IMG/VR virus record: IMGVR_UViG_3300011113_000415
Reading direction: 5' to 3' (one strand)
Source: a virus
Taxonomy: Duplodnaviria > Caudoviricetes
DNA: 64,000 nt
The translations under genes were made by a program, and so were the position numbers. This document shows, in pieces, positions 12,381-38,188 of this stretch; within the stretch, counting starts at the first letter, position 1; every line of letters starts with the position of its first letter. The notes beneath the pieces are model-generated. The model was not told where the DNA came from, made no database searches, and saw only the letters and a list, made by a program, of their open reading frames with translations.

Positions 12381-13954
12381 CCGAACAAGACAACCTAACT
12401 GCCAAACAACTAGACTATGCTGTGTTCTTACCAGCCATTTCTGGTTTCTATGCTACCTTTGTGGGCAAGCAACGTGACCCGGTCAATGGTCCTTATGTGG
12501 ATCCTGCACGTATGCCTGCTGGTATACAAGACATGGAGATGATGAACTGGTTAAACAGTCAGCAGGGTCTGTTTCCTTACCGATGGAGCCTGTATTCAGG
12601 TGGACATGCCAACCTAGACTTGATCAAACAAGACTGGTCGGAGGACATGGTTCGTAATCGCGAGCCTGGCACTGTGATGTTGGGCGACTCGGGCGGATTC
12701 CAGATTGCCAAAGGCCTGTGGGAAGGTGACTGGAAAGCCAATTCAGGTTGTGCCAAGGCACAAAAGAAACGTGAAGCAGTACTCACTTGGTTGGATTCAA
12801 TCAGCACATACGGCATGGGTCTTGATATTCCAACCTGGGTGATTCATGACAAGAAAGCATCAGATGCTTGTCAAATCAAAACACTAGACCAAGCAGTTGC
12901 AGCCACCAAATACAACAACGAATACTTTATCAAGCATCGTCGAGGCAAAGACAACGGTGGTGCCCGGTTCTTAAATGTGCTACAAGGTGACAATCATCCC
13001 AATGCAGATGCATGGTATGAACTAATGAAAGAATACTGTGACCCTGTGAAGTATCCCGGACGTCATTTCGATGGCTGGGGCATGGGTGGACAGAACATGT
13101 GCGATGTGCATTTGGTGCTTCGACGCTTGGTAGCACTACGTCATGACGGCTTGCTACAAGAAGGTCTACACGATTGGATGCACTTCTTGGGCACATCAAA
13201 GTTGGAATGGGCGGTGCTACTTACCGTGATCCAAAGGGCAGTTAGGAAATACGTTAATCCGAGTTTTACTATTTCCTTTGATTGTGCCAGCCCATTCCTC
13301 GCCACCGCCAACGGACAGGTGTATCATCACATTGACTTGCCACACAACGACAAATGGTGCTATCGTATGAGTCCCATTGTGGACGACAAGAAGTATGCCG
13401 CAGACACCCGCCCATATGGTCAGGCCGTGGTAGCAGATGGACTAATCAATCACTTTGATGAGTCACCAATCAGTCGGCACCTACAGATGAAAGATATCTG
13501 TATTTACAAACCAGGTGATCTAAACAAAATCGGCAAAGAAGGCAAGACTTCATGGGACAGTTTCAGTTATGCGCTACTGATGGGCCATAATGTTTGGACA
13601 CACTTGGAAGCGGTACAACGTGCCAACCGCACATATGATTCGGGCTCATGGCCGGCCATGATGTGGAATCAAGGCACCAAAGGTCGCACTGGAGATCATG
13701 CACACTTCCGGGACATTGTGGATGCCATCTTTGCCACACCCAATCGAGCAGAATCGGAAGCCATCATTGAACACTACAGTCGATATTGGATGGACATTGT
13801 AGGCACTCGTGGGTTCAAAGGCGACAAAACCATCAGTGCCAGACCACAGTTCAGTATGTTTTTCGAAGAAGTTGAGGTTGCAGAAACCACCGATGATAGT
13901 GTAGAATTAGACACATCAGCATTGGATCAACTGGAACAGGATCAAGAAAAATGA
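12377..13954 (+). CDS. dpdA: TGT-fold 7-deazaguanine transglycosylase (DpdA-like)
   Basis: TGT motifs GDSGGFQ, MGLDIP, NVLQG, GMGG, HFLG, SFDCAS; clustered with folE/queD/queE. Confidence 0.75.
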   Translation: MTEQDNLTAKQLDYAVFLPAISGFYATFVGKQRDPVNGPYVDPARMPAGIQDMEMMNWLNSQQGLFPYRWSLYSGGHANLDLIKQDWSEDMVRNREPGTVMLGDSGGFQIAKGLWEGDWKANSGCAKAQKKREAVLTWLDSISTYGMGLDIPTWVIHDKKASDACQIKTLDQAVAATKYNNEYFIKHRRGKDNGGARFLNVLQGDNHPNADAWYELMKEYCDPVKYPGRHFDGWGMGGQNMCDVHLVLRRLVALRHDGLLQEGLHDWMHFLGTSKLEWAVLLTVIQRAVRKYVNPSFTISFDCASPFLATANGQVYHHIDLPHNDKWCYRMSPIVDDKKYAADTRPYGQAVVADGLINHFDESPISRHLQMKDICIYKPGDLNKIGKEGKTSWDSFSYALLMGHNVWTHLEAVQRANRTYDSGSWPAMMWNQGTKGRTGDHAHFRDIVDAIFATPNRAESEAIIEHYSRYWMDIVGTRGFKGDKTISARPQFSMFFEEVEVAETTDDSVELDTSALDQLEQDQEK

Positions 13955-14478
13955 ATCGAGACGGACACAAGGATGCCAACTTTTTTGTTGGCACCGAAGT
14001 AGAACGCACACCTGCGTTTGGCAAGAAAACTTTGTTTGTTGTGGGATGGCAACCCATAGTTGAAATTGTTCGACTGCTGGCCGAAAACAATGCCTATATC
14101 GACAAGTCCAAACATATCCGACACATCTTCTTTGGTGCCAATCACAGTTTCCATCCCAACAATAGATTGGAATGGCAACGTTGGGAAAGCATGATAGAAC
14201 CGTTCCTGCAGGATGGATACTTGTGTAGTTTGGATATTCCCATCACGCATGTGGAAGAATTCAACGAAGGCCCACTTTGTGACTACAGAAACTTCGTTCC
14301 ACAGATTCGGGTAAGTATCCCGTATACAAAGTTGTGGAATTATAATACCATGTTGAAAATAGACGACAAAGACTTTGACGCTACCAATCCCGGCGTTTGG
14401 TGTCATAATCTACATGACTTGATGAGTCGTAATACATTTACATCTTGGGATGACTACCGAGAGGACTCTGTGATCTAA
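13951..14478 (+). CDS. Hypothetical protein coupled to dpdA
   Basis: 175 aa, ATGA overlap. Confidence 0.6.
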   Translation: MNRDGHKDANFFVGTEVERTPAFGKKTLFVVGWQPIVEIVRLLAENNAYIDKSKHIRHIFFGANHSFHPNNRLEWQRWESMIEPFLQDGYLCSLDIPITHVEEFNEGPLCDYRNFVPQIRVSIPYTKLWNYNTMLKIDDKDFDATNPGVWCHNLHDLMSRNTFTSWDDYREDSVI

Positions 14479-14888
14479 TGGCAACTTATCCTGCAATCAT
14501 GGGTGCCAAGGCCAGTTCCCAACGGCATAAGATGAACCAAATCTATGGCACTGTCAGTACGGCCACCACAGTTAAACCAGTAAGAAAACTCCCATATCAA
14601 TCACAAGGACTCAATATGTTTAAACGAATGATCAGAGGCTTGGTCACCTGGAGCATGAACGATCGTCATCAAGAAGATATCCAAATATCAGATCGTGAAG
14701 AAGTCAGACTCAGTGGCTCGGGCATTAGATTTGAAGTGTATCGTGCCAATGGCGGCACAGTGATCGAAACTCGTCGCAATGATCGCCGTACAGGTGACAG
14801 TGTGTATGAATTGCATGTGGTTGCTGGAGATCAAGACATTGGCGAAGAGATTGGCAAAATCATAACCATGGAGTCATTAAAAGCATGA
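14478..14888 (+). CDS. Hypothetical protein
   Basis: 136-aa ORF; true start uncertain. Confidence 0.5.
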   Translation: MATYPAIMGAKASSQRHKMNQIYGTVSTATTVKPVRKLPYQSQGLNMFKRMIRGLVTWSMNDRHQEDIQISDREEVRLSGSGIRFEVYRANGGTVIETRRNDRRTGDSVYELHVVAGDQDIGEEIGKIITMESLKA

Positions 14889-15337
14889 ACCAAAGAGCAC
14901 AAGCACTAACAGAACAGCGTGAACGAATCATGAGTCACGCAGAACGTAAAATCTGGGTCACATTCCGCAAAGAAGGAATACATTGCTATCCTGCTGCCGC
15001 AACTGATCCTGCCCTGGCCACAGGTGATGAATATGACGTGAGTTTTCTTGGAACCCCACATCGTCACATATTCCATTTCCGTGTTTGGATTGATGTGTTG
15101 CACAACGATCGTGACATTGAGTTTATTCAATTCAAACGCTGGTTAGAAAACTTGTACAAAGACGGCATCCTGCAACTGGATTACAAGAGTTGTGAAATGA
15201 TGGCCGATGACTTGTATGCAGAAATTTCAGCACGTTATCCAGATCGTGCTGTATGGATTGAGGTTGCCGAAGATGGTGAGAACGGTGCCTTGATCAAATA
15301 TGAACTTGCTCGCCCTAGTCTTTCAATCAAAATTTGA
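14885..15337 (+). CDS. dpdL: QueD-like T-fold protein, DpdL-like (putative CDG decarboxylase)
   Basis: LGTPHRHIF fits LxxxHRHxF; DRDIEFIQFKRWL and SCE motifs; distinct from the canonical queD at 21019. Confidence 0.6.
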   Translation: MNQRAQALTEQRERIMSHAERKIWVTFRKEGIHCYPAAATDPALATGDEYDVSFLGTPHRHIFHFRVWIDVLHNDRDIEFIQFKRWLENLYKDGILQLDYKSCEMMADDLYAEISARYPDRAVWIEVAEDGENGALIKYELARPSLSIKI

Positions 15338-15936
15338 TGCAGATCACTATTATTGCCTATCCGCCAAGCGGTGGGGGCAATCATCTCAAAAATTTATTGT
15401 GTCTTAGTGGTACATTTGCCAACAGCAATGATCTCAATTTGGAACCATATGAAACTGGCAATAGAGAAGTTCATAGTACCGGTGGACGAAACATGAACCA
15501 ATATCGAATTGCTGATGCATTGTCTAGTGCTGGAGATTTTATCTTGCATGGTCATTTTGGTGAACTTGCTCCTTATAGAGAAACAATCAACAACGTTCAG
15601 AACAAAAAATTTGTAATCATCAGTATAGATTCTTCTCATGACCAATATCTATTGCAAAGACGCCAGTCTAGACTAGGTCAACAAAGTCATCCTTATTACT
15701 TGCATGAAGAACAATATTTTTTGTACCAACCACAAATGTTCAGCACTTATTTTACTGGGCAAGAGTCCAAAATATTCTCTTTTCCGTTGACAGAATTATG
15801 GCATCCTGTTATAAATCATAGTACTACATGGGATAGTCTAAATAGTTTCCTTGGCATCACTATTGATCTAGCACAGGCACAACACCTGCACGATCAATGG
15901 CGTGCCAATAATCAAATGTCTACTTACTATTTTTAA
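15334..15936 (+). CDS. Sulfotransferase/P-loop-like hypothetical protein
   Basis: N-terminal AYPPSGGGNHLKNLL. Confidence 0.4.
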   Translation: MMQITIIAYPPSGGGNHLKNLLCLSGTFANSNDLNLEPYETGNREVHSTGGRNMNQYRIADALSSAGDFILHGHFGELAPYRETINNVQNKKFVIISIDSSHDQYLLQRRQSRLGQQSHPYYLHEEQYFLYQPQMFSTYFTGQESKIFSFPLTELWHPVINHSTTWDSLNSFLGITIDLAQAQHLHDQWRANNQMSTYYF

Positions 15937-16172: not shown

Positions 16173-16763
16173 ATGACCAAATGGCCACTGGTAAACCGCG
16201 CTAAAGATAATACCAGTTGGGTTGCTTTGGATAACATTTTTACAGATCAGGAACTTGATGACATTGTGGCTCAAGCCGATCAAGTGGAAAAAAAAATATC
16301 AAGTACTACTGGCAATAGATCAATTTCAGATTATCGTGTGTGTGATATTGCCTGGTTGGAATCTGATGAGATAGAATCAGATTTTGATTGGATATATGCC
16401 ACGCTGACAGATGTAATAAGCCGAGTCAATAATGAGTATTTTAGATTTGACTTGACGCATTTGAATGCGTTACAATACACAATATATGATGGAAACAATC
16501 ACAGCAACTATCAAAAACACATGGACCTAGGACGACAATTTCCCAATAGAAAATTGAGTTTTAGTGTGCAATTGTCTGACGATACTGAGTACACAGGAGG
16601 AGATTTGAGATTCCATTACGTCAAAAATCATCCTGAAGTCGCTCCAAGGCAAAAAGGTCAAGTGATCTTTTTTCCCAGTTGGCTAGTTCATGATGTCACT
16701 CCAGTCACACAAGGAACACGCCGCAGTTTGGTGGGTTGGGTTAATGGTCCAAATTTTAAGTAA
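16173..16763 (+). CDS. 2OG-Fe(II) oxygenase (PKHD/prolyl-hydroxylase-like)
   Basis: HMD...RKLSFSVQL...GGDL...HDVTPV...RRSLVGW. Confidence 0.9.
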   Translation: MTKWPLVNRAKDNTSWVALDNIFTDQELDDIVAQADQVEKKISSTTGNRSISDYRVCDIAWLESDEIESDFDWIYATLTDVISRVNNEYFRFDLTHLNALQYTIYDGNNHSNYQKHMDLGRQFPNRKLSFSVQLSDDTEYTGGDLRFHYVKNHPEVAPRQKGQVIFFPSWLVHDVTPVTQGTRRSLVGWVNGPNFK

Positions 16764-16775
16764 ACAAGGAAAGCA

Positions 16776-17957
16776 ATGAGAAAACTTTACTACATGGGTC
16801 TTGAAAGTTATCAAGGCCGATACACGCTACAACTAACAGAGTGGAACCGGCGAGTGTTTGACCGCAGAGGTCTTGACGTTGTGTATGTTCCTGGCACAAC
16901 TATTGACAACACACAGGCCATATCAGTTGGTCAAGTGTTGGACGCACATGGTCGCAGTTACTTTGGCATGAGCCAGATGATGAACTTGGTTCAACTTATG
17001 AAGAATGGAGAAGTTACCAATGAAGATGTTATCTACTTTGAAGACATGTTTCAACCTGGAATCGAGAGTCTACCCTATATTCTTGATCAAGTTCCTGGCG
17101 ATCAGCGTCCCCGCGTATATGTTAGGTGTCTTGCTCAGTCCATTGATCCTGATGATTTCGTACATGTATGGGGTATGGCGCGATGGATGGGACTCTACGA
17201 ACAAATGGTCAATGAGTTTGTGGACGGAGTTCTTGCCACAAACGAAGAGATGGTTGCTCATATGCGCATTGCTGGATGGCGTGCTCCTATATACAATATT
17301 AGTGGCCTAGCATTTGGCAAGGCAGAAGTGTTAGAACGCATTGGTGGTGCCGACAACATTCGACCATTCCATGAACGCCAATTGCGTGTGGGCTTTGCCG
17401 CCCGCTTTGATCAAGAGAAACAACCTGGCTTCTTTATGGACCTGGCTGAACAGTATCAGAAGACAGACCCTAGTGTGAAGTTTGCTATCTTTCAAGGTGG
17501 CCCATTGAGATCAAACAATGCTGAGTATGTTGCTCGTGCTAGACAATTGGCCAGTGCTGGCCTGTTGGAAATACATGAGAACTTGAACAAGAATGACTAC
17601 TATGCTCTCGTTAACGATACTCGTGTGTTGTTTAATTGTGCCCTTCAAGATTGGGTCAGCAACACAGTTTCCGAGGCTGACACTCTGGGCTGTAATGTAC
17701 TTTACCCTGCTTATCGTAGTTTCCCTGAAACCTTTGCCAATGATCCTGAGCGTCTTTATGTTCCTTGGAGCATGGAAGATGCAATGAACAAACTGGATCC
17801 ACTGTTGGTCACGCCACACACCCGCATGGGACGTATCAGCGACTGGAACAATGGTACTGTAGATAGAATCATTGACATTATCGAGGGCTCTGGCGAGCGG
17901 TGGAATCGTTCGGGCACGAGATATCGTGATCATGTGGCAGGAGCCAAATACCTATGA
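16776..17957 (+). CDS. Glycosyltransferase (GT-B/GT4-like)
   Basis: FAARFDQEKQP; WVSNTVSEADTLGCNVLYP. Confidence 0.75.
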   Translation: MRKLYYMGLESYQGRYTLQLTEWNRRVFDRRGLDVVYVPGTTIDNTQAISVGQVLDAHGRSYFGMSQMMNLVQLMKNGEVTNEDVIYFEDMFQPGIESLPYILDQVPGDQRPRVYVRCLAQSIDPDDFVHVWGMARWMGLYEQMVNEFVDGVLATNEEMVAHMRIAGWRAPIYNISGLAFGKAEVLERIGGADNIRPFHERQLRVGFAARFDQEKQPGFFMDLAEQYQKTDPSVKFAIFQGGPLRSNNAEYVARARQLASAGLLEIHENLNKNDYYALVNDTRVLFNCALQDWVSNTVSEADTLGCNVLYPAYRSFPETFANDPERLYVPWSMEDAMNKLDPLLVTPHTRMGRISDWNNGTVDRIIDIIEGSGERWNRSGTRYRDHVAGAKYL

Positions 17958-18901
17958 ACATCATAGTAACTGGATCAGCAGGCTACATTGGTGGCCAAAC
18001 TGCCTTGCTGTTGAAAGACGCAGGGCATACTGTGTATGGCATTGACCGTAGAGAGCCACCTCGACACTTGTTGGGAGTGGTTGACAAATTTTTGTTGCAA
18101 GACTTTGCATCTGACATTGCCTTGAGTTGGATCATTGCTAAACAACCAGATGCCATTGTCCACTGTGCCGGTACAAGTCTTGTGGGGCCTTCAATGCAAG
18201 ACCCAGCCGAGTACTACAACAACAATGTGGTCAAAACCCTAAAGTTGCTGGACATTGTACGCCGGAGTTTGCCTCGAACCAGAGTTGTATTCAGTTCCTC
18301 AGCGGCCACATATGGTGAGCCTGTGATGATTCCTTGCAGTGAAGTAGATCCCTGTGAGCCTGTATCACCATATGGTGAGAGCAAACTCATGATCGATCGG
18401 ATACTAGAATCATATCACCGAGCATATAGACTCGACTACGTGAGTTTCCGCTACTTCAATGCCTGCGGTGCAGATCCCCAAGGACGCCATGGACAAGAAC
18501 CAGGTGCCACACACATCATTGCTCGTGTGTTAGAAAGCATAAGAGATATAAAAGATTTTGTGTTAAACGGTAATGATTTTCCTACTATAGATGGAACATG
18601 CGTTCGTGATTATGTACACGTAGAGGACATTGCTCGGGCGCATGCCCTGGCCTTGTATCACAAGATTCCAGCAGGCATTTACAATCTTGGCAGTAACATG
18701 GGCACAACCAATCAACAAATTATTGAAGCCGCATTAGATGAAACACAACTACCGTTGAATGTTGTAGTAGGTGCTCGTCGTGTGGGAGATCCGCCTGTGC
18801 TGACTGCCAGCGCAGACAAGTTTAACATGGTGGCCGGTGCTTGGCGTCACTATGATTTGGATGCCATGATACAACACGCATGGTCTTGGTATGTTCGATA
18901 A
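17954..18901 (+). CDS. galE: UDP-glucose 4-epimerase-like NAD-dependent epimerase
   Basis: TGSAGYIG, FSSSAATYG, YGESK, RYFNACG, GTCVRDYVHV. Confidence 0.88.
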   Translation: MNIIVTGSAGYIGGQTALLLKDAGHTVYGIDRREPPRHLLGVVDKFLLQDFASDIALSWIIAKQPDAIVHCAGTSLVGPSMQDPAEYYNNNVVKTLKLLDIVRRSLPRTRVVFSSSAATYGEPVMIPCSEVDPCEPVSPYGESKLMIDRILESYHRAYRLDYVSFRYFNACGADPQGRHGQEPGATHIIARVLESIRDIKDFVLNGNDFPTIDGTCVRDYVHVEDIARAHALALYHKIPAGIYNLGSNMGTTNQQIIEAALDETQLPLNVVVGARRVGDPPVLTASADKFNMVAGAWRHYDLDAMIQHAWSWYVR

Positions 18902-19487
18902 AATTTTGAAATTTGAACATGCGCTGGCCGAGTTTACAGGAGCGCCTTATGCTGTGATGACTGATTGCTGTACACATGCCATTGAGTTGTGCCTGCGACA
19001 CGAGCGTGTGAGAGAATGCCAATTTACACCTTACACCTATTTGAGTATACCCATGCTCATGCTCAAATTGGGCATTGAGTTTCAGTATTTGGACCATGCT
19101 TGGCAACGCTGGGTAGGAGAATACCAATTTATCAATACCAGAATTTGGGACAGTGCAAGACGGTTAGAAAAGAACATGTATCGGCCCGGTGCCATGCAAT
19201 GCGTAAGTTTTGGACATGACAAGCCTTTACATATAGGCCGTGGTGGTGCTATAATACTAGATGACAAAACCGCCTATGATGCACTAATTTGTATGAGGTA
19301 TGATGGTCGTGATCTAAATATCCAACCTTGGCAAGAACAGCGAGAGTTTAGAGTTGGTTATCACTACAAGCCCACACCCGAAGAAGCAATTCAAGGGTTG
19401 GCATTGTTGGAAGGCCTTAAAGAACATTATGCTCCGCCCCGCGAAGTTTTGTATCCAGATTTAAGAACTATTACCATTAGGGAATAA
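18891..19487 (+). CDS. Short DegT/DnrJ/EryC1/StrS aminotransferase-like protein
   Basis: AVMTDCCTHAIEL; DSA; SFGHDKPLHIGRGG. Confidence 0.7.
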   Translation: MFDKILKFEHALAEFTGAPYAVMTDCCTHAIELCLRHERVRECQFTPYTYLSIPMLMLKLGIEFQYLDHAWQRWVGEYQFINTRIWDSARRLEKNMYRPGAMQCVSFGHDKPLHIGRGGAIILDDKTAYDALICMRYDGRDLNIQPWQEQREFRVGYHYKPTPEEAIQGLALLEGLKEHYAPPREVLYPDLRTITIRE

Positions 19488-19488
19488 C

Positions 19489-20235
19489 ATGACAGACAAA
19501 AAGCAAACAGCATTAGACGCCATGGCAGGAGATGGCGGGTATTCAGAAGGCTACCTAGGAGGTTACATTCGTGCTAGAATGAGACGAGAAGGTAAGCGTT
19601 TCTGGGCAGGAGACAACATCAGTGAATACATCAACGATCTTGAAAAAGAAGTGTTAATCGATGAAGCAACTGAAGCATTTGAACTGGTTCTAGATCGTTT
19701 GCTTATAGATCGTGAAACCGATCCTAACAGTAAAGGCACAGCCCGTCGCCTTGCTAAAATGTATTTTAACGAAATAATGGCAGGACGTTATGAAACACCA
19801 CCAGATGCAACATGTTTTCCAAATGATTCGGCGGACCGTTACGAAGGTATGCTGGTTGTTCGCAGTGAGTTGCGGAGTATGTGCAGTCATCATCACCAAC
19901 CCGTTACTGGTGTTGCTTATATTGGTATTTTGGCTGCTGGTAAACTCATTGGACTATCAAAGTACACAAGAATTGCACAATGGTGTGCCCGACGTGGCAC
20001 TCTCCAGGAGGAACTTTGTATTGACATTGCTCGGGAAATACAACGAGCCACCGACTCAGAAAACGTAGGCGTGTACATTCAGGCCACACATGGTTGCTGT
20101 GAGAATCGTGGCATCATGGCACACTCCAGTTTGACACAGACCACTGTGTTGCGAGGCTTGTTCAAAACCGATGCAGGTGTCAAAAAAGAGTTCATGGACA
20201 ATATCAAACTGCAACAAGACTTTGCTCCGAGATAA
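19489..20235 (+). CDS. folE: GTP cyclohydrolase I
   Basis: SMCSHHHQP, GLSKYTR, HGCCENRG. Confidence 0.95.
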   Translation: MTDKKQTALDAMAGDGGYSEGYLGGYIRARMRREGKRFWAGDNISEYINDLEKEVLIDEATEAFELVLDRLLIDRETDPNSKGTARRLAKMYFNEIMAGRYETPPDATCFPNDSADRYEGMLVVRSELRSMCSHHHQPVTGVAYIGILAAGKLIGLSKYTRIAQWCARRGTLQEELCIDIAREIQRATDSENVGVYIQATHGCCENRGIMAHSSLTQTTVLRGLFKTDAGVKKEFMDNIKLQQDFAPR

Positions 20236-20237
20236 CA

Positions 20238-20429
20238 ATGTTATTAGAAATTGCATGTATCGTAGCAGGATTTTTGGCAGGCATGACCTATGCTCAAGAA
20301 CGAGACTGGCAACGCTACTGCAGGACTCGTGAAGAAGTCAAAGACGAAGTCAGTAAGGAGTTTGACTATTACAAAAACCTTTCAGTCAGCCTAAAACAAG
20401 ATTTACATCAACTCAAAAATAAAAAATGA
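20238..20429 (+). CDS. Small hypothetical protein with N-terminal TM segment
   Basis: 63 aa. Confidence 0.5.
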   Translation: MLLEIACIVAGFLAGMTYAQERDWQRYCRTREEVKDEVSKEFDYYKNLSVSLKQDLHQLKNKK

Positions 20430-20535
20430 CTTGCATATCTAACCATGACGGCTCCATTCAACTGCCTGCGGAACCGGGTTTGTTGGAATGGTTGCAACAG
20501 CACTATCCTTATTCACAATATCATTTGATTGAATT

Positions 20536-20937
20536 ATGAAATACCAAACACTAGAATCAGCACAGACAGCAGGTGCGGCACCCTGGGATCTCAAAGTAGA
20601 TGAACTGTCAGACTTTCATGTTACAGTATTCCAAGATCGCTTTCCAGTCACTACAGGGCACTTGTTGTTTGTGCCCAACTACAATACCGCTGAACTTATC
20701 CGAGATGCATTTTACAGTGCTCAACTGGCTGGAGAAAGCATGGTACAACTGGGAGAATGCGATGCCTACAACATTGGTATCAATCAGGGTCGAGCCGCTG
20801 GTCAAACCATAATGTACCCACATATCCATCTAATTCCTCGTAGAACCGGGGACTGTGCGGATCCAGTAGGTGGTGTGCGGGGCGTAATTCCCCAACAACA
20901 GAACTATAAAACCCATCACTATCAACAGCCAGCATAA
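20536..20937 (+). CDS. HIT-family nucleotide hydrolase
   Basis: GHLLFVP; AGQTIMYPHIHLIPR. Confidence 0.88.
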   Translation: MKYQTLESAQTAGAAPWDLKVDELSDFHVTVFQDRFPVTTGHLLFVPNYNTAELIRDAFYSAQLAGESMVQLGECDAYNIGINQGRAAGQTIMYPHIHLIPRRTGDCADPVGGVRGVIPQQQNYKTHHYQQPA

Positions 20938-21018
20938 ATATTCTTTTAAGCGGTCTTGGCGTCATTCCCGCTCGACAAACTCTGCCGCCTATGCTACAAT
21001 TTAACATAGGAGAACAGC
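20935..21018 (+). promoter_or_regulatory. Late-promoter-like ATAAATA followed by structured leader of queD that masks the RBS
   Basis: AGCGG/CCGCT stem, possible GGCG/CGCC pseudoknot, CCTATG/CATAGG hairpin over AGGAG. Confidence 0.45.
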
Positions 21019-21534
21019 ATGAATTCAATACAAATACCCGTTCCTCGCCAGTACAAATACACAAGTACCAAAGAGTATCACGACGCATTTCCTTGTGCCT
21101 ATCGACAGTGGCGGGCTGACAGCCATTGCAATCTCATACATGGGTATTCATTCTCAATGAAGTTCTACTTTGGCACAGATCACTTGGATGTACGCAACTG
21201 GGCCGCCGACTACGGTGGACTTAAAGAACTCAAATCAGTGCTGGAAGATCAGTTTGATCATACCTTGTTGGTTGCTGAAGACGATCCTGAAATCGAATTC
21301 TATCATGAAATGCAACGCAGGAACATTGCCAAACTAACTATATTACCCAAGTTGGGATGCGAAGGTCTTGCTGACCAACTATACAAGTATGTTAACGGTG
21401 TTTACATTCCGGACCTTTGGGGCCAGGGTGAAGCAGAGCGTCTCTGGTGTTATCGTGTGGAAGTACGTGAAACTCAGAGCAACATGGCTTTTAGAGAAGG
21501 CCATCGCGAATGGAATGAAGATCTGTTCGCATAA
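21019..21534 (+). CDS. queD: 6-carboxy-5,6,7,8-tetrahydropterin synthase
   Basis: CNLIHGYSF, DYGGLKELK, FDHTLL, GCE. Confidence 0.9.
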   Translation: MNSIQIPVPRQYKYTSTKEYHDAFPCAYRQWRADSHCNLIHGYSFSMKFYFGTDHLDVRNWAADYGGLKELKSVLEDQFDHTLLVAEDDPEIEFYHEMQRRNIAKLTILPKLGCEGLADQLYKYVNGVYIPDLWGQGEAERLWCYRVEVRETQSNMAFREGHREWNEDLFA

Positions 21535-21549
21535 TCTAAAGGAGAAATT

Positions 21550-22173
21550 ATGTTAGGCAAACTATTTGAAGGCGTAGATAAGAAGATGATGGCCAAACTT
21601 GCATTTTTGCATTTGGTTATTATTGTTATCTCAAACGCACTTGTTTCAATTCCAGTTGAAATCTTGGGTGTGAAATTGACCTGGGCGGCTTTTGTTTACC
21701 CAATGGTTATCTTGGCCAGTGACTTGACCGTGAGATTGATTGGTAAAGGCATTGCCAGAGCCACCATTGCGGCCGCATATCCCCTGGCCATTGTTGGTAG
21801 TATAGCAGTTGTATTGCTAGAAGGTGCACCTACCAGTGTTGCTTTACGCATTGGCTTTGGTAGTGCCACAGCATACTTGATTGGTTGCTTACTTGATGTA
21901 TACGTATTCCAATATGTGCGTGAAAAGTTCACACAACAATGGTGGGCCGCACCTGCACTCAGCATGGTTGTTGCTAACTTCATTGACAGTTATGTGTTCT
22001 TTAGTATTGCTTTCTCGGGTGGTGCAGATGAATACATGGCCGCTAACTGGCCTGAAATTGCTCTCAGCCAAAGCATCTTGAAGATTGTGGTTGGTTTCAT
22101 CTTGTTCTTACCAGCGTATGGCGTGTTATTAAACTACTTGAAGAAGCGTCTAGGCAACACCGATCAAGGTTGA
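21550..22173 (+). CDS. yhhQ: YhhQ/VUT-family 7-deazaguanine precursor transporter
   Basis: About 6 TM segments; ISN, TWAAFVYP, SDLTVR, LDVYVF, IDSYVFFSIAF. Confidence 0.85.
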   Translation: MLGKLFEGVDKKMMAKLAFLHLVIIVISNALVSIPVEILGVKLTWAAFVYPMVILASDLTVRLIGKGIARATIAAAYPLAIVGSIAVVLLEGAPTSVALRIGFGSATAYLIGCLLDVYVFQYVREKFTQQWWAAPALSMVVANFIDSYVFFSIAFSGGADEYMAANWPEIALSQSILKIVVGFILFLPAYGVLLNYLKKRLGNTDQG

Positions 22174-22183
22174 TAATGACCCT

Positions 22184-23011
22184 ATGAGCACAGATATTTC
22201 AATTCTGTTGCCCACACGTGGTAGGTCAGACATGCTGATGCGTAGTCTGACCAGCCTACATGATCTAGCCACTGATTTCACCCGTATCGAAATCTTGTTT
22301 GGCATGGACAACAATGATGCAGTAGGTCTCGAAAACATGTTGCATCATGTGATACCCTGGATTGAACGGCACAAAGTTGCACACAAGATTGTGATCTTTG
22401 AACCCATGGGCTACCACAATCTGCACAAGTACTTGAACGGCCTGGCAGAGTCAAGTGCAAGCCCCTGGTTGTTCTTCTGGAACGACGATGCTGTTATGAA
22501 AACACAGGGTTGGGACACATACATACGTGCCCGGACCGGCGAATTCAAATTGCTCAGTGTGATAACACACAACGAACATCCTTATTCTATCTTTCCTATA
22601 ATACCACGCGAATGGTTTGAAGTTTTGGGGCATATCAGTCAACACAGTCTCAACGATGCCTGGGTCAGTTGTATTGCCTATGGCCTAGACATATTTGAAC
22701 GACTGCCTGTGTATTGTGACCATGAACGCCATGATCTAACAGGCACCAACAATGATGCCACGTATCAACAGAGAACAGTGCTGGAAGGTGATCGTAGCAA
22801 CCCTTTGGATTTCAACTATCCCAGCGTGGTTGAACTCAGGATGCAAGATGCTGCCAAATTGGCACAATGGCTTCAGGATGTGAAAAATCAAGACATGACA
22901 TTTTTTGCAGAATGTTGCGAGGGCATACGAGATCCCTGGGTCAAAATGCGAGCCAACGATCCCAACCGACAAGTAGTGACCATGACTGTAGAACGATTAA
23001 ATAAAGAATGA
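22184..23011 (+). CDS. GT-A (GT2-like) glycosyltransferase, paralog 1
   Basis: ISILLPTRGR, FFWNDDA, HPYSIFP, NDAWVS. Confidence 0.75.
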   Translation: MSTDISILLPTRGRSDMLMRSLTSLHDLATDFTRIEILFGMDNNDAVGLENMLHHVIPWIERHKVAHKIVIFEPMGYHNLHKYLNGLAESSASPWLFFWNDDAVMKTQGWDTYIRARTGEFKLLSVITHNEHPYSIFPIIPREWFEVLGHISQHSLNDAWVSCIAYGLDIFERLPVYCDHERHDLTGTNNDATYQQRTVLEGDRSNPLDFNYPSVVELRMQDAAKLAQWLQDVKNQDMTFFAECCEGIRDPWVKMRANDPNRQVVTMTVERLNKE

Positions 23012-24951
23012 CCAAAAGAACAATCAGTTTTGTCCAGCCCAACTTTCAACAAGGCCCCAAAGAGTTCAATGCCTATTATTTGCCTTATTCTGCAGGCGTA
23101 ATATTGAGTTATGCCTTTAGTTTTGAACACATAAGCCGGGCCTGGGCTGTGGATCAAATGATTTGGCGTAGAGAACCAATTGATGATCTTGCACCACAGT
23201 TGGCCAAGAATGACATCGTGGCATTCAGCACCTATGTTTGGAATCACAGATACAACTACAAACTGGCAGAAAAAATAAAACAAATCAATCCCGCGGTCAA
23301 GATAATATTTGGTGGTCCAGAACCTGCCATTGAAGATACTGAACTGTTTGTGAAAGAGCCATTCATGGATTTGGTCAGCAAAATGGAAGGTGAGATCACA
23401 TTCAAACGCATACTAGAAGACTTTGATACTGACTTTACTCACATACCCGGCCTATTAATCAACACGCCCAACGGTCTAGTCAACACAGGTGACTGTGCCA
23501 GAATCGATGATCTAGATCAAATACCCAGCCCTTATCTTACAGGCATCTTTGATCAAATCATTGAAGAGAACCCTGACGTGATCTGGAACGCTACACTAGA
23601 GACCAATCGCGGTTGTCCTTATCAGTGTACATTCTGCGACTGGGGCAGTCTAACCTACAACAAGGTCAAGAAGTTTGAACTCACACGAGTGTTTCACGAA
23701 ATGGACTGGATCGGAGCCAACTGTGGCTTTGTTACCATCACAGACGCCAACTTTGGCATGTTTGTGGAACGTGACAACATGATTGTGGACAAGTTGATTG
23801 AAGTACAAAAACGCTGGGGACGATTATCTTCGTTCTCCATGACCTGGGCCAAGAATCAAAAGAACGAAGTTGTGGACATTGTGAAGAAGTTGATACGTGA
23901 AAGTCCAAACTTTGGTCAAGGTCTTACTGTGAGTGTACAGAGCATGGACCACGATGTGTTAGAAAACATCAAACGTAGAAACCTAGATCAGCACAAGATT
24001 GATGAAATTTTTGCCTTGTGTGATCGCAACAACATTCCTGTGTACACAGAGTTAATTCTTGGTCTGCCAGGCGAAACAGTGCAGTCATGGAAAGATGCAT
24101 TCTGGAAAATTTTCCGTGCAGGCAATCACACAGGCATAAACATTCTGCAAGCACAGTTGCTGGAGAATGCTGAAATGAATCTGCTACAAAAACGAATGTG
24201 GAAAATTAAATCAGTTCCTGTATTTGACTACATGAGTGGCAGTTATGGCGATGCTGACCTTAACGAGTGTGTGGATGTGGTAGTGAGCACCAAAGATATT
24301 CCCAAAGAAGAAATGTTAGACACCTTGGTCTGGAACAGTTTTATTCAAACATTCCATATCAACGGCTTGACCACATACATTGCTAGATACTTAGACAAAG
24401 CACATGGCATCGAATACAGCAAGTTCTATGATGATCTGTATCAGTGGGTGCAACAGGACACATGGTTTAGTGAACAGTTTACTGAAACACGCGATTATTT
24501 TGCTAACTGGACACGACACGGATCTATCAATCATCCACCCATCGGCAACATTCAAGTGTTTGGATGGAACCTAGTGCACCGTACCACCTTGTATATGCAA
24601 CAGCAAGATCGAGTGGCCTATGTATTCGATAGTGTTGACAGATTCGTAAAAAGTCATTATAATATTGACAAGCACATATTAGATCAACTCATGCGGTTCC
24701 AGCGGAACTATGTGATTGACTATCGTGATCTTAAATCTTTACCAATAAAACAAGAATTTGATTATGATTTTCTTGGTTACATCTTGGATGACGAGCCAAT
24801 TAAACAGTCATGCACATACACATTTGACACCCCAGAGGATCAAGATATGAGTATGGACCGTTTTCTTGAAAACATGTACTTTGCTAGAAAGAGAAACTTT
24901 GGAAAAACAACTATCATCCGAGACCGCGTCCACGACGCCCAACTTGCCTGA
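23008..24951 (+). CDS. Cobalamin-binding radical SAM enzyme (class B-like)
   Basis: B12-domain AFSTYVWN...IIFGGPE; CxxxCxxC in RGCPYQCTFC; ILGLPGET. Confidence 0.9.
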   Translation: MTKRTISFVQPNFQQGPKEFNAYYLPYSAGVILSYAFSFEHISRAWAVDQMIWRREPIDDLAPQLAKNDIVAFSTYVWNHRYNYKLAEKIKQINPAVKIIFGGPEPAIEDTELFVKEPFMDLVSKMEGEITFKRILEDFDTDFTHIPGLLINTPNGLVNTGDCARIDDLDQIPSPYLTGIFDQIIEENPDVIWNATLETNRGCPYQCTFCDWGSLTYNKVKKFELTRVFHEMDWIGANCGFVTITDANFGMFVERDNMIVDKLIEVQKRWGRLSSFSMTWAKNQKNEVVDIVKKLIRESPNFGQGLTVSVQSMDHDVLENIKRRNLDQHKIDEIFALCDRNNIPVYTELILGLPGETVQSWKDAFWKIFRAGNHTGINILQAQLLENAEMNLLQKRMWKIKSVPVFDYMSGSYGDADLNECVDVVVSTKDIPKEEMLDTLVWNSFIQTFHINGLTTYIARYLDKAHGIEYSKFYDDLYQWVQQDTWFSEQFTETRDYFANWTRHGSINHPPIGNIQVFGWNLVHRTTLYMQQQDRVAYVFDSVDRFVKSHYNIDKHILDQLMRFQRNYVIDYRDLKSLPIKQEFDYDFLGYILDDEPIKQSCTYTFDTPEDQDMSMDRFLENMYFARKRNFGKTTIIRDRVHDAQLA

Positions 24952-25783
24952 ACGTGATCCCTCTGTAGATATCAGTATCTTGTTGCCTGTGCGTGGCAGG
25001 CCCGAACCCATGAAAAAATGTTTGCACACTTTGATCGATCATGCAAAAAATCCTGAACGTATCGAAGTGTTGATTGCATTTGATGACGATGACACAGATA
25101 CTATCAACTACTTTGTTGAAAATATTGCGCCTTATCTTGATGACATGGATGTGCGTTACAGTGCCATGCAGTTCCAGCGGCTAGGCTATATCAGGCTTAA
25201 TGAATACTTAAATGAACTGGCTCGACACAGTGCCGGTGCTTGGATGTTCTTTTGGAATGACGATGCTGTGATGACCACACAGGATTGGGATCAAGCAATC
25301 ATGGCTCACGATGGTGAGTTTGCGTTGTTACGTGCAGAAACCAATCACGCACATCCTTATGCAATCTTTCCTATTGTGCCACGCAAGTGGGTAGAGATAA
25401 CTGGACACCTGAGTCCACATCAGATCAATGATGCCTGGGTCAGCCAGGTGGCTTGGATGTTGGATATTGTTAAAAATATTCCAGTCATGGTCGATCATGA
25501 ACGCTATGATCTAACAGGCAAAAACGGAGATGATGTTTATAAAAATCGCCCTATGCTGGAAGGTAATCCTGCCAACCCACGAGACTTCAATCACATTACC
25601 TGGCGGAAGACCCGCATTGATGAATGTATGAAATTGGCTCAGCATCTTGTACCGCTTGGGCACAACATGAATCATTTCAAATGGGGTGTTGAAGGCAAGG
25701 ATGATCAAGGTCGTGACTATGATATTTGGTGCAAGATGAATGCGGCAGACCCACACAAACGCTTGAAACAATGGAAAGACTAA
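24866..25783 (+). CDS. GT-A (GT2-like) glycosyltransferase, paralog 2
   Basis: ISILLPVRGR, FFWNDDA, HPYAIFP, NDAWVS; true start uncertain. Confidence 0.75.
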   Translation: MKTCTLLERETLEKQLSSETASTTPNLPERDPSVDISILLPVRGRPEPMKKCLHTLIDHAKNPERIEVLIAFDDDDTDTINYFVENIAPYLDDMDVRYSAMQFQRLGYIRLNEYLNELARHSAGAWMFFWNDDAVMTTQDWDQAIMAHDGEFALLRAETNHAHPYAIFPIVPRKWVEITGHLSPHQINDAWVSQVAWMLDIVKNIPVMVDHERYDLTGKNGDDVYKNRPMLEGNPANPRDFNHITWRKTRIDECMKLAQHLVPLGHNMNHFKWGVEGKDDQGRDYDIWCKMNAADPHKRLKQWKD

Positions 25784-25784
25784 C

Positions 25785-26567
25785 GTGAACAATGATCAAC
25801 TGATTGACCGCATAAAGCAATATTGGAACGCACAACCCTGTAATGTAAAACACAGCCTGAGCGAACCCGGAACAGAACAATACTGGAACGAAATATCAGA
25901 ACGCAGATATTTTGTAGAACCACATCTACGTGATTTGGCCGGCTTTCACCAATGGCGCGGCAAACGTGTGTTAGAAGTGGGCTCAGGTATTGGATCTGAT
26001 GCAGTAGAGTTTGTGCGTCACGGTGCTGAGTATGTGGGCATTGATCTTTCAGCAGAATCAGTGGCCATGAGTCGTCAACGATTTAAGTTGTTTGGTCTTG
26101 ATGGCGAGTTTCATAATATAGATGCTGCCGACACCAAAAGCGTGGCCGCACTAGGCCGCTTTGATTTGGTTTACTCATGCGGTGTGCTACATCACTATCC
26201 AGACATGTCCACGTGTCTTGACAACATTCACAATGCATTAGAACCCGATGGTGAATTTAGAATGTTGGTTTATGCAAAGAATTCCTGGAAGTATGCCATG
26301 ATCCGAAAAGGTCTGGACCAGTTCGAAGCACAAGCCGGATGTCCTTATGCCCAGGCCTATTCGCACGAAGACATCTACAATCTCCTAAATGGAAAATTTG
26401 AAGTCCTAAGGATTAGACAAGCACATTGTTTCATGTATAATATACCCAAGTACCGTCAAGGTATCTACGAACTCGAACCTTGGTTTGCGGCCATGTCAGA
26501 AGAAATGCGTGAGGCCGTGAAAGAATATCTAGGTTGGCATTTATTAGTTAAAGCACGGAAAATATGA
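25785..26567 (+). CDS. Class I SAM-dependent methyltransferase
   Basis: VLEVGSGIG, GIDLS, FDLVYSCGVLHH. Confidence 0.9.
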   Translation: MNNDQLIDRIKQYWNAQPCNVKHSLSEPGTEQYWNEISERRYFVEPHLRDLAGFHQWRGKRVLEVGSGIGSDAVEFVRHGAEYVGIDLSAESVAMSRQRFKLFGLDGEFHNIDAADTKSVAALGRFDLVYSCGVLHHYPDMSTCLDNIHNALEPDGEFRMLVYAKNSWKYAMIRKGLDQFEAQAGCPYAQAYSHEDIYNLLNGKFEVLRIRQAHCFMYNIPKYRQGIYELEPWFAAMSEEMREAVKEYLGWHLLVKARKI

Positions 26568-27421
26568 GTAAACTTAAAGTAGCAGAATTGTTTTATAGTG
26601 TGCAAGGCGAAGGCAGGTACATGGGTGTGCCGTCAGTGTTCTTGCGTGTGTTTGGATGCAACTTCAAGTGTGCCGGCTTTGGCATGCCGCGTGGTGAACT
26701 CAGCACAGAAGTCAACGATATTGCATCAAGAGTACACTACTACAAAACCTACAACGAACTACCATTGGTATCTACAGGCTGTGACAGTTATGCGTCATGG
26801 GATCCAAGATTCAAGGATTTGAGTCCTGTGGTAGAAAGCAATGGCATTGTGCATCGCATCATGGAGATCTTGCCACATCGCCGTTGGGAAAGTGAGCATT
26901 TGGTAATCACAGGTGGCGAACCTTTGCTGGGTTGGCAACGTGCTTACCCAGACTTGCTAGATCACCCCAGCATGGACAGACTTCGAGAGATCACGTTTGA
27001 AACCAATGGCACCCAAGCATTAGATGATCGCTTCAAAGAATACTTGCATACATGGACATATCATCATGATCACAACTTTCGCCGAGAAGTCACGTTCTCA
27101 GTTAGTGCCAAACTACCCGGTTCGGGTGAATCATGGTCGGATGCCATTCGACCCGACGTGGTTTGTGAATACGAAGAGTATGGTTATACATACTTGAAAC
27201 TGGTGATTGCCACAGAACAGGATCTAGCAGATGCAGAACAAGCAGTCTTGGAATATCGCACAGCAGGGTTTGAAGGTCCTGTGTATGTTATGCCTGTTGG
27301 CGGTGTTGAACGGGTGTACAATCTTAATAATCGAGCAGTGGCAGAAATGGCCATGCGAAAAGGGTGGCGCTATTCAGACCGACTCCAAGTACCACTCTTT
27401 AAAAACGAATGGGGAACTTGA
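26564..27421 (+). CDS. queE: 7-carboxy-7-deazaguanine synthase (radical SAM)
   Basis: ELFYSVQGEG, FLRVFGCNFKC...GCDS, ITGGEP, FETNGT. Confidence 0.92.
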   Translation: MSKLKVAELFYSVQGEGRYMGVPSVFLRVFGCNFKCAGFGMPRGELSTEVNDIASRVHYYKTYNELPLVSTGCDSYASWDPRFKDLSPVVESNGIVHRIMEILPHRRWESEHLVITGGEPLLGWQRAYPDLLDHPSMDRLREITFETNGTQALDDRFKEYLHTWTYHHDHNFRREVTFSVSAKLPGSGESWSDAIRPDVVCEYEEYGYTYLKLVIATEQDLADAEQAVLEYRTAGFEGPVYVMPVGGVERVYNLNNRAVAEMAMRKGWRYSDRLQVPLFKNEWGT

Positions 27422-27813
27422 TGGGCATACGTGATTGGTTCCGCAAAAAACCCAAACCTGCTCCTAAGACCCGAGCAGAAACAAAACCCCCAGAGCCGGT
27501 CAAGAGCGAAAAACAGTTGGCCACTGAACGTGGCGAGCCTTGGGTGGCCATACTCAGCATGGATATTGACCCCAACAACCTGCATCAAGGTGCATTCGAA
27601 CTAGACTGGAACGACAAGTTCATATTCAATCTCATACGTGCAGGCTATCAACTCAAGAAAGAAGACACTGATGCAGAGATTGTGGATCGCTGGTTTCAAA
27701 ATGTTTGCCGCCATGTGGTAATGGAAACCTATGAGCAAGAAGAAGCCATGAAGAAGTCAGGCATTTATGTTCGCACCACCGATCTTGGTGACGGGCGCAC
27801 GGAAGTGTCTTGA
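27409..27813 (+). CDS. Hypothetical protein
   Basis: 134-aa ORF. Confidence 0.6.
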   Translation: MGNLMGIRDWFRKKPKPAPKTRAETKPPEPVKSEKQLATERGEPWVAILSMDIDPNNLHQGAFELDWNDKFIFNLIRAGYQLKKEDTDAEIVDRWFQNVCRHVVMETYEQEEAMKKSGIYVRTTDLGDGRTEVS

Positions 27814-28511
27814 TCTTATACGTCAACGGTGACAGCCATACTGCGGCAGCCGAAGCAGTAAATTCTTATGCATTTGCTGAAGATGATGGCTTGTATTATG
27901 GACTAGGTCGTAGACCACATCCAGACAACGAGCGTGTGAGTTGGGGTTGTGAACTGGCCAACCATCTCAGAGCCATATTGCATTGTGATGCAGAAAGTGC
28001 TTCTAGCAATGCTCGTATCATGCGTACCACACGAGCCTGGCTACAACAACAAGACAGCCTTGATGATACCTTGATTGTCATACAATGGTCAACTTGGGAA
28101 CGACAAGAGTGGTTGCATGACAACACATGGTATCAGGTCAATGCTAGTGGCATAGATGATGTGCCTGATTCCCTACAAGATCGATATAAAAGATTTATAT
28201 CTGACGTAAATTGGTCCAAAGCAAAACAATATGCACATAGCGAAATCTGGCAGTTTCATCGCGAACTGCACCTCAATGGTGTCCGGCATGTGTTCTTTAA
28301 TGGTAATTCGGATTTCTCAGGTGTGACAAATCGTCACGATTGGGGCGTGAACTATATGGCACCTTATGATCCGGACAATACCTACGATCGAGTACTAAGA
28401 AACGGTGGTTTCTCCACGGTACGCCCAGATTCCTGGCATTTTGGTGAGGCTGCCCATTGCTTTTGGGCACAACATGTGCTAAACTACATCAAACACAACA
28501 ACTTGGTTTAA
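27810..28511 (+). CDS. SGNH hydrolase-like protein
   Basis: LYVNGDSHT; late HFG. Confidence 0.55.
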   Translation: MILYVNGDSHTAAAEAVNSYAFAEDDGLYYGLGRRPHPDNERVSWGCELANHLRAILHCDAESASSNARIMRTTRAWLQQQDSLDDTLIVIQWSTWERQEWLHDNTWYQVNASGIDDVPDSLQDRYKRFISDVNWSKAKQYAHSEIWQFHRELHLNGVRHVFFNGNSDFSGVTNRHDWGVNYMAPYDPDNTYDRVLRNGGFSTVRPDSWHFGEAAHCFWAQHVLNYIKHNNLV

Positions 28512-34832: not shown

Positions 34833-34918
34833 ACAACGGACGCCGTATTGGTCGCAGGCCCTAGACTCATAATCTAGTTCGAAAGACACTGTGGGTTCGA
34901 ATCCCACCCGTTGTACCA
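34833..34918 (+). tRNA. tRNA with CAT anticodon and long variable arm (Ile2/Met identity unclear)
   Basis: ACAACGG/CCGTTGT, loop CTCATAA, TC-GAAA-GA variable arm, TTCGAAT T-loop, CCA. Confidence 0.85.
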
Positions 34919-34926
34919 CAATAACC

Positions 34927-35406: not shown

Positions 35407-35459
35407 ATTTTTTCTATTGCCAACATAGATAATCTCAATAGCAAAAACCTATTTTTTGC

Positions 35460-35488
35460 TTGACTTCATTGATATATACTATTATAAT
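35460..35488 (+). promoter_or_regulatory. Sigma70 promoter
   Basis: TTGACT-17-TATAAT. Confidence 0.75.
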
Positions 35489-36254: not shown

Positions 36255-36256
36255 TC

Positions 36257-38178: not shown

Positions 38179-38188
38179 GGAGGCAATA

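Follow-up and report, generated by a model that had tools for sequence, protein, structure and literature searches.

To our knowledge, all sugar-bearing DNA bases found so far are pyrimidines (glucosyl-5-hydroxymethylcytosine, arabinosyl-5-hydroxycytosine and base J), and the only known sugar-bearing deazaguanine is the glycosylated queuosine of tRNA. Glucosyl-5-hydroxymethylcytosine is found in phage T4 and arabinosyl-5-hydroxycytosine in RB69/DLP3 (PMC13326640), and mannosyl- and galactosyl-queuosine are formed in vertebrate tRNA by QTMAN and QTGAL (bioRxiv 10.64898/2026.06.28.735034, PMC12518689). The DNA of Vibrio phage VP1 contains 2′-deoxy-7-deazaguanine (dDG), as determined by liquid chromatography-mass spectrometry. 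The signature LxxxHRHxF of the QueD paralogue DpdL was defined by Cui, Hutinet et al., NAR 2023 (PMC10516641); in that work no dDG was formed in E. coli by DpdL and DpdA of phage phiST or of phage ACP17, which led the authors to suggest that a further enzyme might be needed. Here, a stretch of 64,000 nucleotides from IMG/VR virus record IMGVR_UViG_3300011113_000415 (the window) was analyzed for a gene block that combines a DpdL-type deazaguanine pathway with a glycosyltransferase of predicted GT-B fold (GT-B) and a set of sugar-tailoring genes. We propose that GT-B may place a hexose on 7-deazaguanine and so give a sugar-bearing purine analogue in DNA; a literature search returned no description of a glycosylated deazaguanine in DNA.

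The deazaguanine core and its glycosyltransferase

The genes of the window that would make, insert and glycosylate the base, together with the conserved gene u175, are as follows.

12377-13954, + strand: DpdA-like DNA guanine transglycosylase, 525 amino acids (DSGGFQ motif; homologues in que clusters)
13951-14478, + strand: u175, a conserved protein encoded between DpdA and DpdL and kept in relatives
14885-15337, + strand: DpdL, a QueD paralogue of 150 amino acids, proposed decarboxylase of 7-carboxy-7-deazaguanine (CDG) (LGTPHRHIF; phrog_17812)
16776-17957, + strand: predicted GT4-like GT-B glycosyltransferase (AlphaFold2 fold)
19489-20235, + strand: FolE, GTP cyclohydrolase I (PF01227, 8e-39)
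21019-21534, + strand: QueD variant with PTPS fold and C...HGY motif (PF01242, 7.9e-14)
26564-27421, + strand: QueE, CDG synthase (NCBIfam QueE models, below cut-offs; match to the QueE of phage BUCT-ZZ01)

Judged by motifs and profile matches, the module is a QueC-less, DpdL-type 7-deazaguanine pathway composed of DpdA, DpdL, FolE, the QueD variant and QueE. Both dpd genes called in a preliminary description of this DNA proved to be real, DpdA carrying DSGGFQ and DpdL carrying LGTPHRHIF. The DpdL motif fits LxxxHRHxF, which replaces the CxxxHGH motif of QueD, and tblastn matched the protein to CGPG_00067 of phiST (33.9% identity, 5e-8) and to ACP17 (57%, 5e-39). Decarboxylation of CDG to 7-deazaguanine is the activity proposed for this enzyme. 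No QueC above cut-off was found in four relatives that were 95-100% complete (330-350 kb), such genome-level absences being tested here and below in complete IMG/VR relatives. Because QueC is lacking, synthesis would stop short of preQ0.

On its modelled structure, GT-B is a GT4-like glycosyltransferase. The family comprised 789 members from a search of 1.84 billion representative proteins, and an AlphaFold2 model built from an alignment of 117 members had a mean predicted local distance difference test score (pLDDT) of 96.3. The best Foldseek matches of this model were the GT4 retaining enzymes BshA, MshA, GlgM, SenB and PimA, with E about 1e-12 and template modelling (TM) scores of 0.6-0.7. 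Residues R210 and K215 were invariant and D292 nearly so among the 117 sequences, and the window protein has the spacing D292-x7-E300; a conserved Arg/Lys pair and an (E/D)x7E motif in the C-terminal domain are the signature of GT4-like retaining GT-B enzymes. By contrast to the fold search, Pfam (E up to 5) returned only Glyco_trans_1_2 at 18 bits, which is under the cut-off of 25.

The genomic company of GT-B was consistent across cultured and metagenomic phages. Matches to the family hidden Markov model adjoin DpdA or DpdL in Xanthomonas phage BUDD (2e-23), Burkholderia phage BCSR5, Acidovorax phage ACP17 and Pseudomonas phage PA5oct, a GT-B homologue lies directly after DpdL in Sinorhizobium phage Phosso, and a copy 67% identical to that of the window lies directly after DpdL in the freshwater cyanophage BUCT-ZZ01. 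Among distant metagenomic GT-Bs (31-33% identity), P0080 and P0111 have DpdL immediately upstream, P0108 has DpdL just upstream with a 91-amino-acid gene between the two (locus L173), and P0143 is preceded by a gene for a 125-amino-acid protein with weak similarity to PTPS. The contigs of P0108 and P0143 carry family A polymerases (PolA) and are therefore of unrelated phage types. When whole records of the DpdL-less phages 2.275.O, immuto_2-6A and S-SCSM2R were searched with the GT-B profile, no copy was detected. A query with the representative P0111 against genome contigs found no related locus, which does not settle occurrence in cellular genomes. By these sequence comparisons no GT-B was seen without DpdL, and about half of the tested DpdL lineages have one, a distribution to be expected if GT-B performs a tailoring step after that of DpdL. 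The idea that at least one glycosyltransferase is tied in function to the deazaguanine genes is thus supported.

We next considered which acceptor such an enzyme could use. An all-versus-all comparison of the neighbourhoods revealed no family in most clusters beyond FolE, QueD, QueE, DpdL, DpdA and GT-B, and the acceptor of GT-B must therefore come from the core pathway. Glycosyltransferases serving a hydroxymethyl- or hydroxy-pyrimidine were considered and rejected: no ThyA-family gene was found in the complete relatives, so that the pyrimidine route by which DNA is usually glycosylated is not available. The Tet_JBP family (PF12851) likewise gave no match in the complete relatives, but neither did the control for that search. 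The DNA of the GT-B carrier PA5oct withstands several restriction enzymes, which has been ascribed to a structurally uncharacterized modification of G (PMC12191111).

The identity of DpdA rests on weaker evidence than that of DpdL, namely a motif, homologues within clusters and protein-language-model neighbours. The sequence GDSGGFQ at residues 103-109 was invariant across 22 homologues, and DSGGFQ is the catalytic-Asp motif of the TGT family. The window protein is 33% identical to the homologues of PA5oct and Phosso; homologues lie inside the deazaguanine clusters of PA5oct, 2.275.O and metagenomic locus L172, and the Phosso homologue and que genes are some 170 kb apart. Protein-language-model neighbours fell in TGT (0.93) and DpdA (0.88) clusters, which we treat as a lead only. 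No curated profile or solved structure was matched among Pfam, NCBIfam and PDB profiles, and hhalign against the BUDD TGT gave a probability of 0.5%, with no significant similarity outside the DSGGFQ stretch. The adjoining gene u175 was present in 72 of 72 relatives and is next to DpdA in ACP17 as well. Its AlphaFold2 model (pLDDT 76) had no meaningful match in the PDB or the AlphaFold database save one unnamed homologue, and an atlas search did not rise above noise level.

The C...HGY variant of the window QueD was also found in the QueD of phiST, ACP17 and BCSR5. More fully, F/YRQW...HCxxxHGY was observed in the QueD of all DpdL-type phages examined, phiST included (homologues L164, L167 and L169), and HGY in 73 of 73 IMG/VR homologues. 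Compared to E. coli QueD, two of the three zinc-binding histidines are apparently Tyr or Phe. The NCBIfam models matched QueE below their cut-offs, and a strong match was obtained to the annotated QueE of BUCT-ZZ01. The cysteine spacing of this protein is unusual (C32-x3-C36-x36-C73, and not CxxxCxxC or Cx14CxxC), with all three cysteines 100% conserved in the family.

Two further proteins were noted in clusters of this kind. A small protein annotated in BUCT-ZZ01 as xanthine-guanine phosphoribosyltransferase is common to the deazaguanine clusters of BUCT-ZZ01 (L175, 9081-9554) and PA5oct (L002, 18946-19380), and could be a sign of a nucleotide-level route for the deazapurine. In Vibrio phage Bakedbeans, the DpdL-like domain forms the C-terminal third of the 383-amino-acid protein gp176 (L183, 6254-7405), fused to an unassigned N-terminal domain.

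The sugar-tailoring cassette and its setting

The preliminary description had reported sugar and radical-enzyme genes interleaved with the que genes and mostly translationally coupled to them, and this arrangement was confirmed. All of the named genes lie on the + strand between 16173 and 27421, at the positions first assigned to them, with successive intergenic gaps of 3, 12, -4, -11, 1, 2, 106, 81, 15, 10, -4, -8, 1 and -4 nucleotides. Thus, only two junctions exceed 15 nucleotides (106 and 81), the gap of 81 nucleotides being the leader upstream of queD. Rfam applied to positions 20300-21100 (E up to 1) detected neither a preQ1 nor any other riboswitch, and promoter and terminator scans gave sites no more numerous than in shuffled sequence. 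Isoelectric points were uninformative on DNA binding, as most proteins of the block are acidic, PolB included. The region is best explained as a DNA-modification module set between the DNA polymerase and a FEN/RNase H gene.

To determine how widely the block is shared, proteins of the window were run by tblastn against 160 IMG/VR loci. Presence was counted in loci chosen by GT-B similarity alone, save for YhhQ, which was counted in relatives selected by the cobalamin-dependent enzyme (B12 enzyme). The genes of the cassette, with their presence in relatives, are listed below.

16173-16763, + strand: 2-oxoglutarate (2OG)-Fe(II) oxygenase, similar to prolyl 4-hydroxylase (P4H-like) (PF13640, 4.7e-14); 1 of 76 relatives
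17954-18901, + strand: UDP-glucose 4-epimerase GalE (TIGR01179, 277 bits); 63 of 68
18891-19487, + strand: truncated DegT/perosamine-synthetase-like pyridoxal phosphate protein of 198 amino acids, mini-DegT (PF01041, 1.9e-15); 61 of 68
20536-20937, + strand: HIT-family nucleotide hydrolase or transferase (PF01230, 7.5e-11; HIHLI motif); 13 of 13
21550-22173, + strand: YhhQ/Vut_1 queuosine-precursor transporter (PF02592, 6.4e-23); 12 of 34 B12-selected relatives
22184-23011, + strand: GT-A-like glycosyltransferase related to the gene at 24944-25783 (phrog_14945, 2.6e-10); 13 of 13
23008-24951, + strand: cobalamin-dependent radical S-adenosylmethionine (SAM) C-methyltransferase, TokK/CysS/KedN5-like, the B12 enzyme (PF02310, PF04055); 4 of 13
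24866-25783, + strand, likely start TTG at 24944: GT2-family glycosyltransferase, the second GT-A (PF00535, 2.2e-6); 13 of 13
25785-26567, + strand: class I SAM methyltransferase (PF08242 and PF13847, about 1e-16); 8 of 13

For the GT2 gene, a start upstream of 24960 is demanded by the N-terminal strand VDISILLP. The QueD gene was present in 13 of 13 relatives and a small gene, u73, in 74 of 76. The order of the block recurs in more than 100 IMG/VR contigs and so did not come about by chance. It begins with PolB, MT1, a clamp-like protein, DpdA, u175, DpdL, u73, GT-B, GalE, DegT, FolE, HIT and QueD, and ends with YhhQ (optional), the two GT-As, the B12 enzyme (optional), the methyltransferase (optional), QueE, u134, DUF6071 and FEN. 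Nearly all members of the clade carry GalE, mini-DegT, HIT and the two GT-As, and some carry the B12 enzyme, the methyltransferase, the 2OG oxygenase, YhhQ and sulfotransferase-like genes. The window is a maximal version of the block, with the rare accessory genes for the 2OG oxygenase, the B12 enzyme, YhhQ, two sulfotransferase-like proteins and u136. Rare accessory genes at 11718-12380 and 15334-15936 flank the dpd genes and were found in 5 of 63 and 2 of 76 relatives, respectively; one of them has a weak sulfotransferase-family match (E 0.004).

Among the cassette enzymes, GalE scored above the equivalog cut-off of 262.3 bits, and its gene overlaps the GT-B gene by 4 nucleotides. The mini-DegT is about half the length of a normal enzyme, and its alignment to perosamine synthetase is limited to residues 40-70 and 180-258 of the latter, with the SFxxxK lysine region kept. 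The 2OG oxygenase has an HxD at residue 116, the distal His and an RxS, and matched the 2OG-FeII_Oxy_3 and PKHD-type hydroxylase models with no match to Tet_JBP; its family was found in 342 phage records, mostly marine T4-like cyanophages. The B12 enzyme has an N-terminal B12-binding domain and a radical SAM domain whose CxxxCxxC motif is CPYQCTFC at residue 203. It was closest to TokK (1e-76), CysS (1.5e-46) and the KedN5 family NF033712 (4e-69), the score of 233 bits against a cut-off of 700 bits for NF033712 placing it in the TokK/CysS/KedN5 branch and not in the equivalog. TokK, CysS and KedN5 methylate unactivated sp3 carbons, often repeatedly, and CysS and KedN5 extend an O-methyl group. 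By this analogy, action of the B12 enzyme with the nearby SAM methyltransferase on a sugar would be a better fit than methylation of the sp2 carbon C7 of the base.

Homologues of the B12 enzyme (49-76% identity) were also detected in 15 loci that have no que/dpd neighbour. In one (L052) its neighbours are three radical SAM genes and a gene resembling UDP-glucose dehydrogenase, in another (L058) it lies between RNA-ligase-like and NAD-salvage genes, and a third (L076) combines it with another B12 enzyme, an epimerase, DUF6071 and two radical SAM genes. A DUF6071 protein is encoded a few genes downstream of the B12 gene in the window (27810-28511) and downstream of it in the unrelated, que-less contig L076 (12287-13159); from this shared position it may be a functional partner of the B12 enzyme. 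Of the association with dpdA/dpdL that could be expected for the whole gene set, the part concerning GT-B was upheld, but the B12 enzyme, the 2OG oxygenase and mini-DegT assort independently of dpdA.

The source of the window is, by its sequence, an uncultivated freshwater jumbo phage. The window PolB (7176-9836) is 51% identical to that of the Sinorhizobium jumbo phage Phosso and 47% to that of Atu_ph07, and the same stretch is present in lake, river and freshwater metagenomes of several studies; the assignment is drawn from this kinship and this occurrence taken together. A megablast search of the region against cultured phages gave no match, and the sequencing runs listed for the stretch include no RNA dataset. 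Elsewhere, positions 34833-49273 hold 25 tRNA genes and, at 48690-49273, a permuted two-piece transfer-messenger RNA (tmRNA) gene (80 bits). Permuted tmRNAs are typical of alpha-proteobacteria, cyanobacteria and some beta-proteobacteria, and this one may be a hint of the host. Auxiliary metabolic genes were found at 4251-4751, 35536-37422, 47201-47902 and 54911-56236 (ferritin-like, AhpC/TSA peroxiredoxin, class II aldolase, CMD-family, fatty-acid desaturase and TctA transporter subunit). A further radical SAM protein is encoded at 39670-40860 on the - strand, and a fragment-like DNA polymerase III alpha protein of 557 amino acids, with NTPase and finger domains only, at 50915-52588.

A proposed glycosylated deazaguanine and its alternatives

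From the gene identities, folds, synteny and co-occurrence described above, we infer the following acceptor, donor and order of steps. FolE, the QueD variant and QueE would produce CDG, which DpdL would decarboxylate to 7-deazaguanine, and the large DpdA would exchange guanine in DNA for this base. GT-B would transfer a hexose to this base, acting either on DNA that already contains the deazaguanine or on the free deazaguanine before DpdA inserts it, with GalE supplying or interconverting the donor, UDP-glucose or UDP-galactose. In this clade the two GT-As would extend the sugar, and the methyltransferase and B12 enzyme would alkylate it, an O-methyl group being extended by radical C-methylation as for CysS/TokK. 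The most likely role of the cassette is this extension and alkylation of the sugar, and its action on C7 of the base is unlikely. We estimate the probability that the DNA of these phages bears a sugar on deazaguanine at about 0.45, as judged from sequence comparison. In its maximal version the proposal is more tentative, and we regard it as rather unlikely in full: the DNA of the clade would hold the first glycosylated purine analogue, a 7-deazaguanine with a short glycan that is started by the DpdL-associated GT4 enzyme, extended by the two GT-As and given ethyl/isopropyl-type alkyl groups by the O-methyltransferase and the TokK/CysS-like B12 enzyme.

Several points weigh against a sugar on the base. 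7-Deazaguanine has no hydroxyl, and the linkage would need C7 or C8, N2 or the carboxyl of CDG. The nearest structural relatives of GT-B act on small molecules, not on DNA, and phage alpha-glucosyltransferases known to act on DNA appear only at ranks 34 and 48 of its fold search, with TM about 0.5. Searches of whole records with the GT-B profile found no copy in the DpdL-positive phages phiST, RHph_I1_18, Ahp1, Bakedbeans and D479, and the DNA of GT-B-less phiST holds plain dDG (PMC10516641). Gene order within a single clade is inherited and hence is weak evidence of shared function. In addition, Flavobacterium phage immuto_2-6A, whose DNA is reported as fully 7-(formylamino)methyl-7-deazaguanine (fdPreQ1) (PMC10516641), has mini-DegT in a sugar cluster that is separated from the que genes by about 16 kb. 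A mini-DegT is likewise present in cyanophage S-SCSM2R, where its cluster includes a radical SAM gene as well as glycosyltransferases and 2OG oxygenases, and where no FolE or PTPS gene was detected in the whole genome.

The last two sugar clusters also speak for two systems sharing one locus, which we consider doubtful. GT-B would then belong to the deazaguanine pathway, while GalE, mini-DegT, HIT, the two GT-As, the B12 enzyme, the methyltransferase and the 2OG oxygenase would build a glycan elsewhere, e.g., on virion proteins or the host envelope, having landed in a permissive spot of the early/replication block. The occurrence of the B12 enzyme, the 2OG oxygenase and mini-DegT without que/dpd neighbours agrees with this, and content as variable as that seen for the B12 enzyme (4/13), methyltransferase (8/13) and oxygenase (1/76) is typical of surface-glycan cassettes. 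By contrast, the cassette is interleaved with folE, queD and queE and tightly packed on the same strand, and its gene order is maintained throughout the clade. The GalE and GT-B genes overlap, and the block is surrounded by replication genes rather than structural ones. It is less probable still that GT-B acts on a free metabolite of the pathway (a deazapurine base or pterin intermediate) to give either a glycoside that stays in solution or an activated intermediate that is short-lived, while the DNA would contain plain dDG or 2′-deoxy-7-carboxy-7-deazaguanine. The closest folds do take small acceptors (malate for BshA and inositol phosphate for MshA, with SenB and GlgM likewise), and the start and stop codons of DpdL and GT-B often overlap, as would fit consecutive steps on a metabolite. 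DpdL and DpdA alone also failed to give dDG in E. coli (PMC10516641). However, no known step from CDG to 7-deazaguanine needs a sugar, phiST makes dDG without GT-B, and the extra glycosyltransferases and sugar-tailoring genes of the clade would be left purposeless.

The route originally envisaged, in which the B12 enzyme methylates C7, the 2OG oxygenase hydroxylates the methyl group and glycosyltransferases decorate the resulting hydroxymethyl by a logic like that of TET/JBP, now appears very improbable. All three enzyme types do lie in one co-directional block, and the oxygenase was present in 7 of 21 relatives carrying the B12 enzyme compared to 1 of 76 overall, although several of these loci are near-identical and the counts are not independent. 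Against this route, the oxygenase belongs to 2OG-FeII_Oxy_3 and not to Tet_JBP, in a family common in cyanophages, and the B12 enzyme is nearest to the sp3 C-methylases and has homologues in contigs without nearby que/dpd genes. GT-B is retained, with neither enzyme seen, in most relatives and in those cultured GT-B phages for which the cluster was read. Since GT-B and DpdL occur together in phages with neither the B12 enzyme nor the oxygenase found near the cluster, the acceptor of GT-B is independent of both. The idea of a sugar-bearing deazaguanine base is thus retained from the preliminary description on the strength of GT-B travelling with DpdL, but its sequence of C7 methylation, hydroxylation and glycosylation lacks support. 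Position alone is no ground for calling a B12 radical SAM enzyme or 2OG oxygenase base-modifying.

If the proposed sugar on 7-deazaguanine is correct, it would be a new class of DNA base, with probable effects on restriction enzymes and CRISPR as well as on the recently discovered defence enzymes directed against modified G (glycosylases and END nucleases). The modification would also be ecologically widespread, given how abundant this clade is in rivers and lakes. The GT-B family may also supply the activity that was lacking when reconstitution of the DpdL pathway failed. Cultured phages with the DpdL/GT-B pair, namely PA5oct, ACP17, BUCT-ZZ01, BUDD, BCSR5 and Phosso, make the proposal testable now.

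Comparison with known systems

The systems of base J (JBP and JGT) and of phage TET enzymes with glycosyltransferases resemble the locus of the window in having a 2OG oxygenase and glycosyltransferases together. They differ in that the oxygenase of the window is P4H-like, rare among relatives and of a family widespread in cyanophages. Similarly, the B12 enzyme shares its B12-binding and radical SAM domains and its CxxxCxxC motif with TokK, CysS and KedN5, and the presence of a SAM methyltransferase two genes away recalls the CysQ/CysS pairing; by contrast to those enzymes, it is encoded in a phage sugar/deazaguanine block and not in an antibiotic cluster. The likeness to T4 and RB69/DLP3 is one of logic only, in that genes for phage glycosyltransferases and sugar-nucleotide enzymes lie next to those for base modification, and short chains could be built on a DNA base by several glycosyltransferases. 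In those phages the acceptor is a hydroxylated pyrimidine from a ThyA homologue, whereas the candidate acceptor here is a purine analogue and the complete relatives are without the ThyA family. To the phage DNA alpha-glucosyltransferases GT-B shows generic GT-B likeness only.

QTMAN belongs to the GT4 type and QTGAL to the GT2 type, and the parallel with the window thus extends to the same two fold classes as well as to a sugar on a 7-deazaguanine derivative in nucleic acid. Their acceptor, however, is the cyclopentenediol of queuosine in tRNA; in the window's relatives, without QueC, the route from preQ0 to queuosine would lack its starting point (the search did not extend to QueF, QueA and QueG). 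GT-B was not recognized as a member of the QTMAN family, with no Pfam match (E up to 5) but the weak one to Glyco_trans_1_2 and no QTMAN among its top 30 Swiss-Prot fold matches.

The dDG system of phiST (PMC10516641) is the closest known. Like the window, it has FolE, QueE, a DpdL with LxxxHRHxF, a C...HGY QueD, no QueC and a gene for a TGT-like transglycosylase adjacent to replication genes. It differs in having a small DpdA3 of 259 amino acids, no GT-B and no sugar genes, whereas the window combines a 525-amino-acid DpdA of another subfamily with the predicted GT4-like enzyme and the sugar-tailoring cassette.

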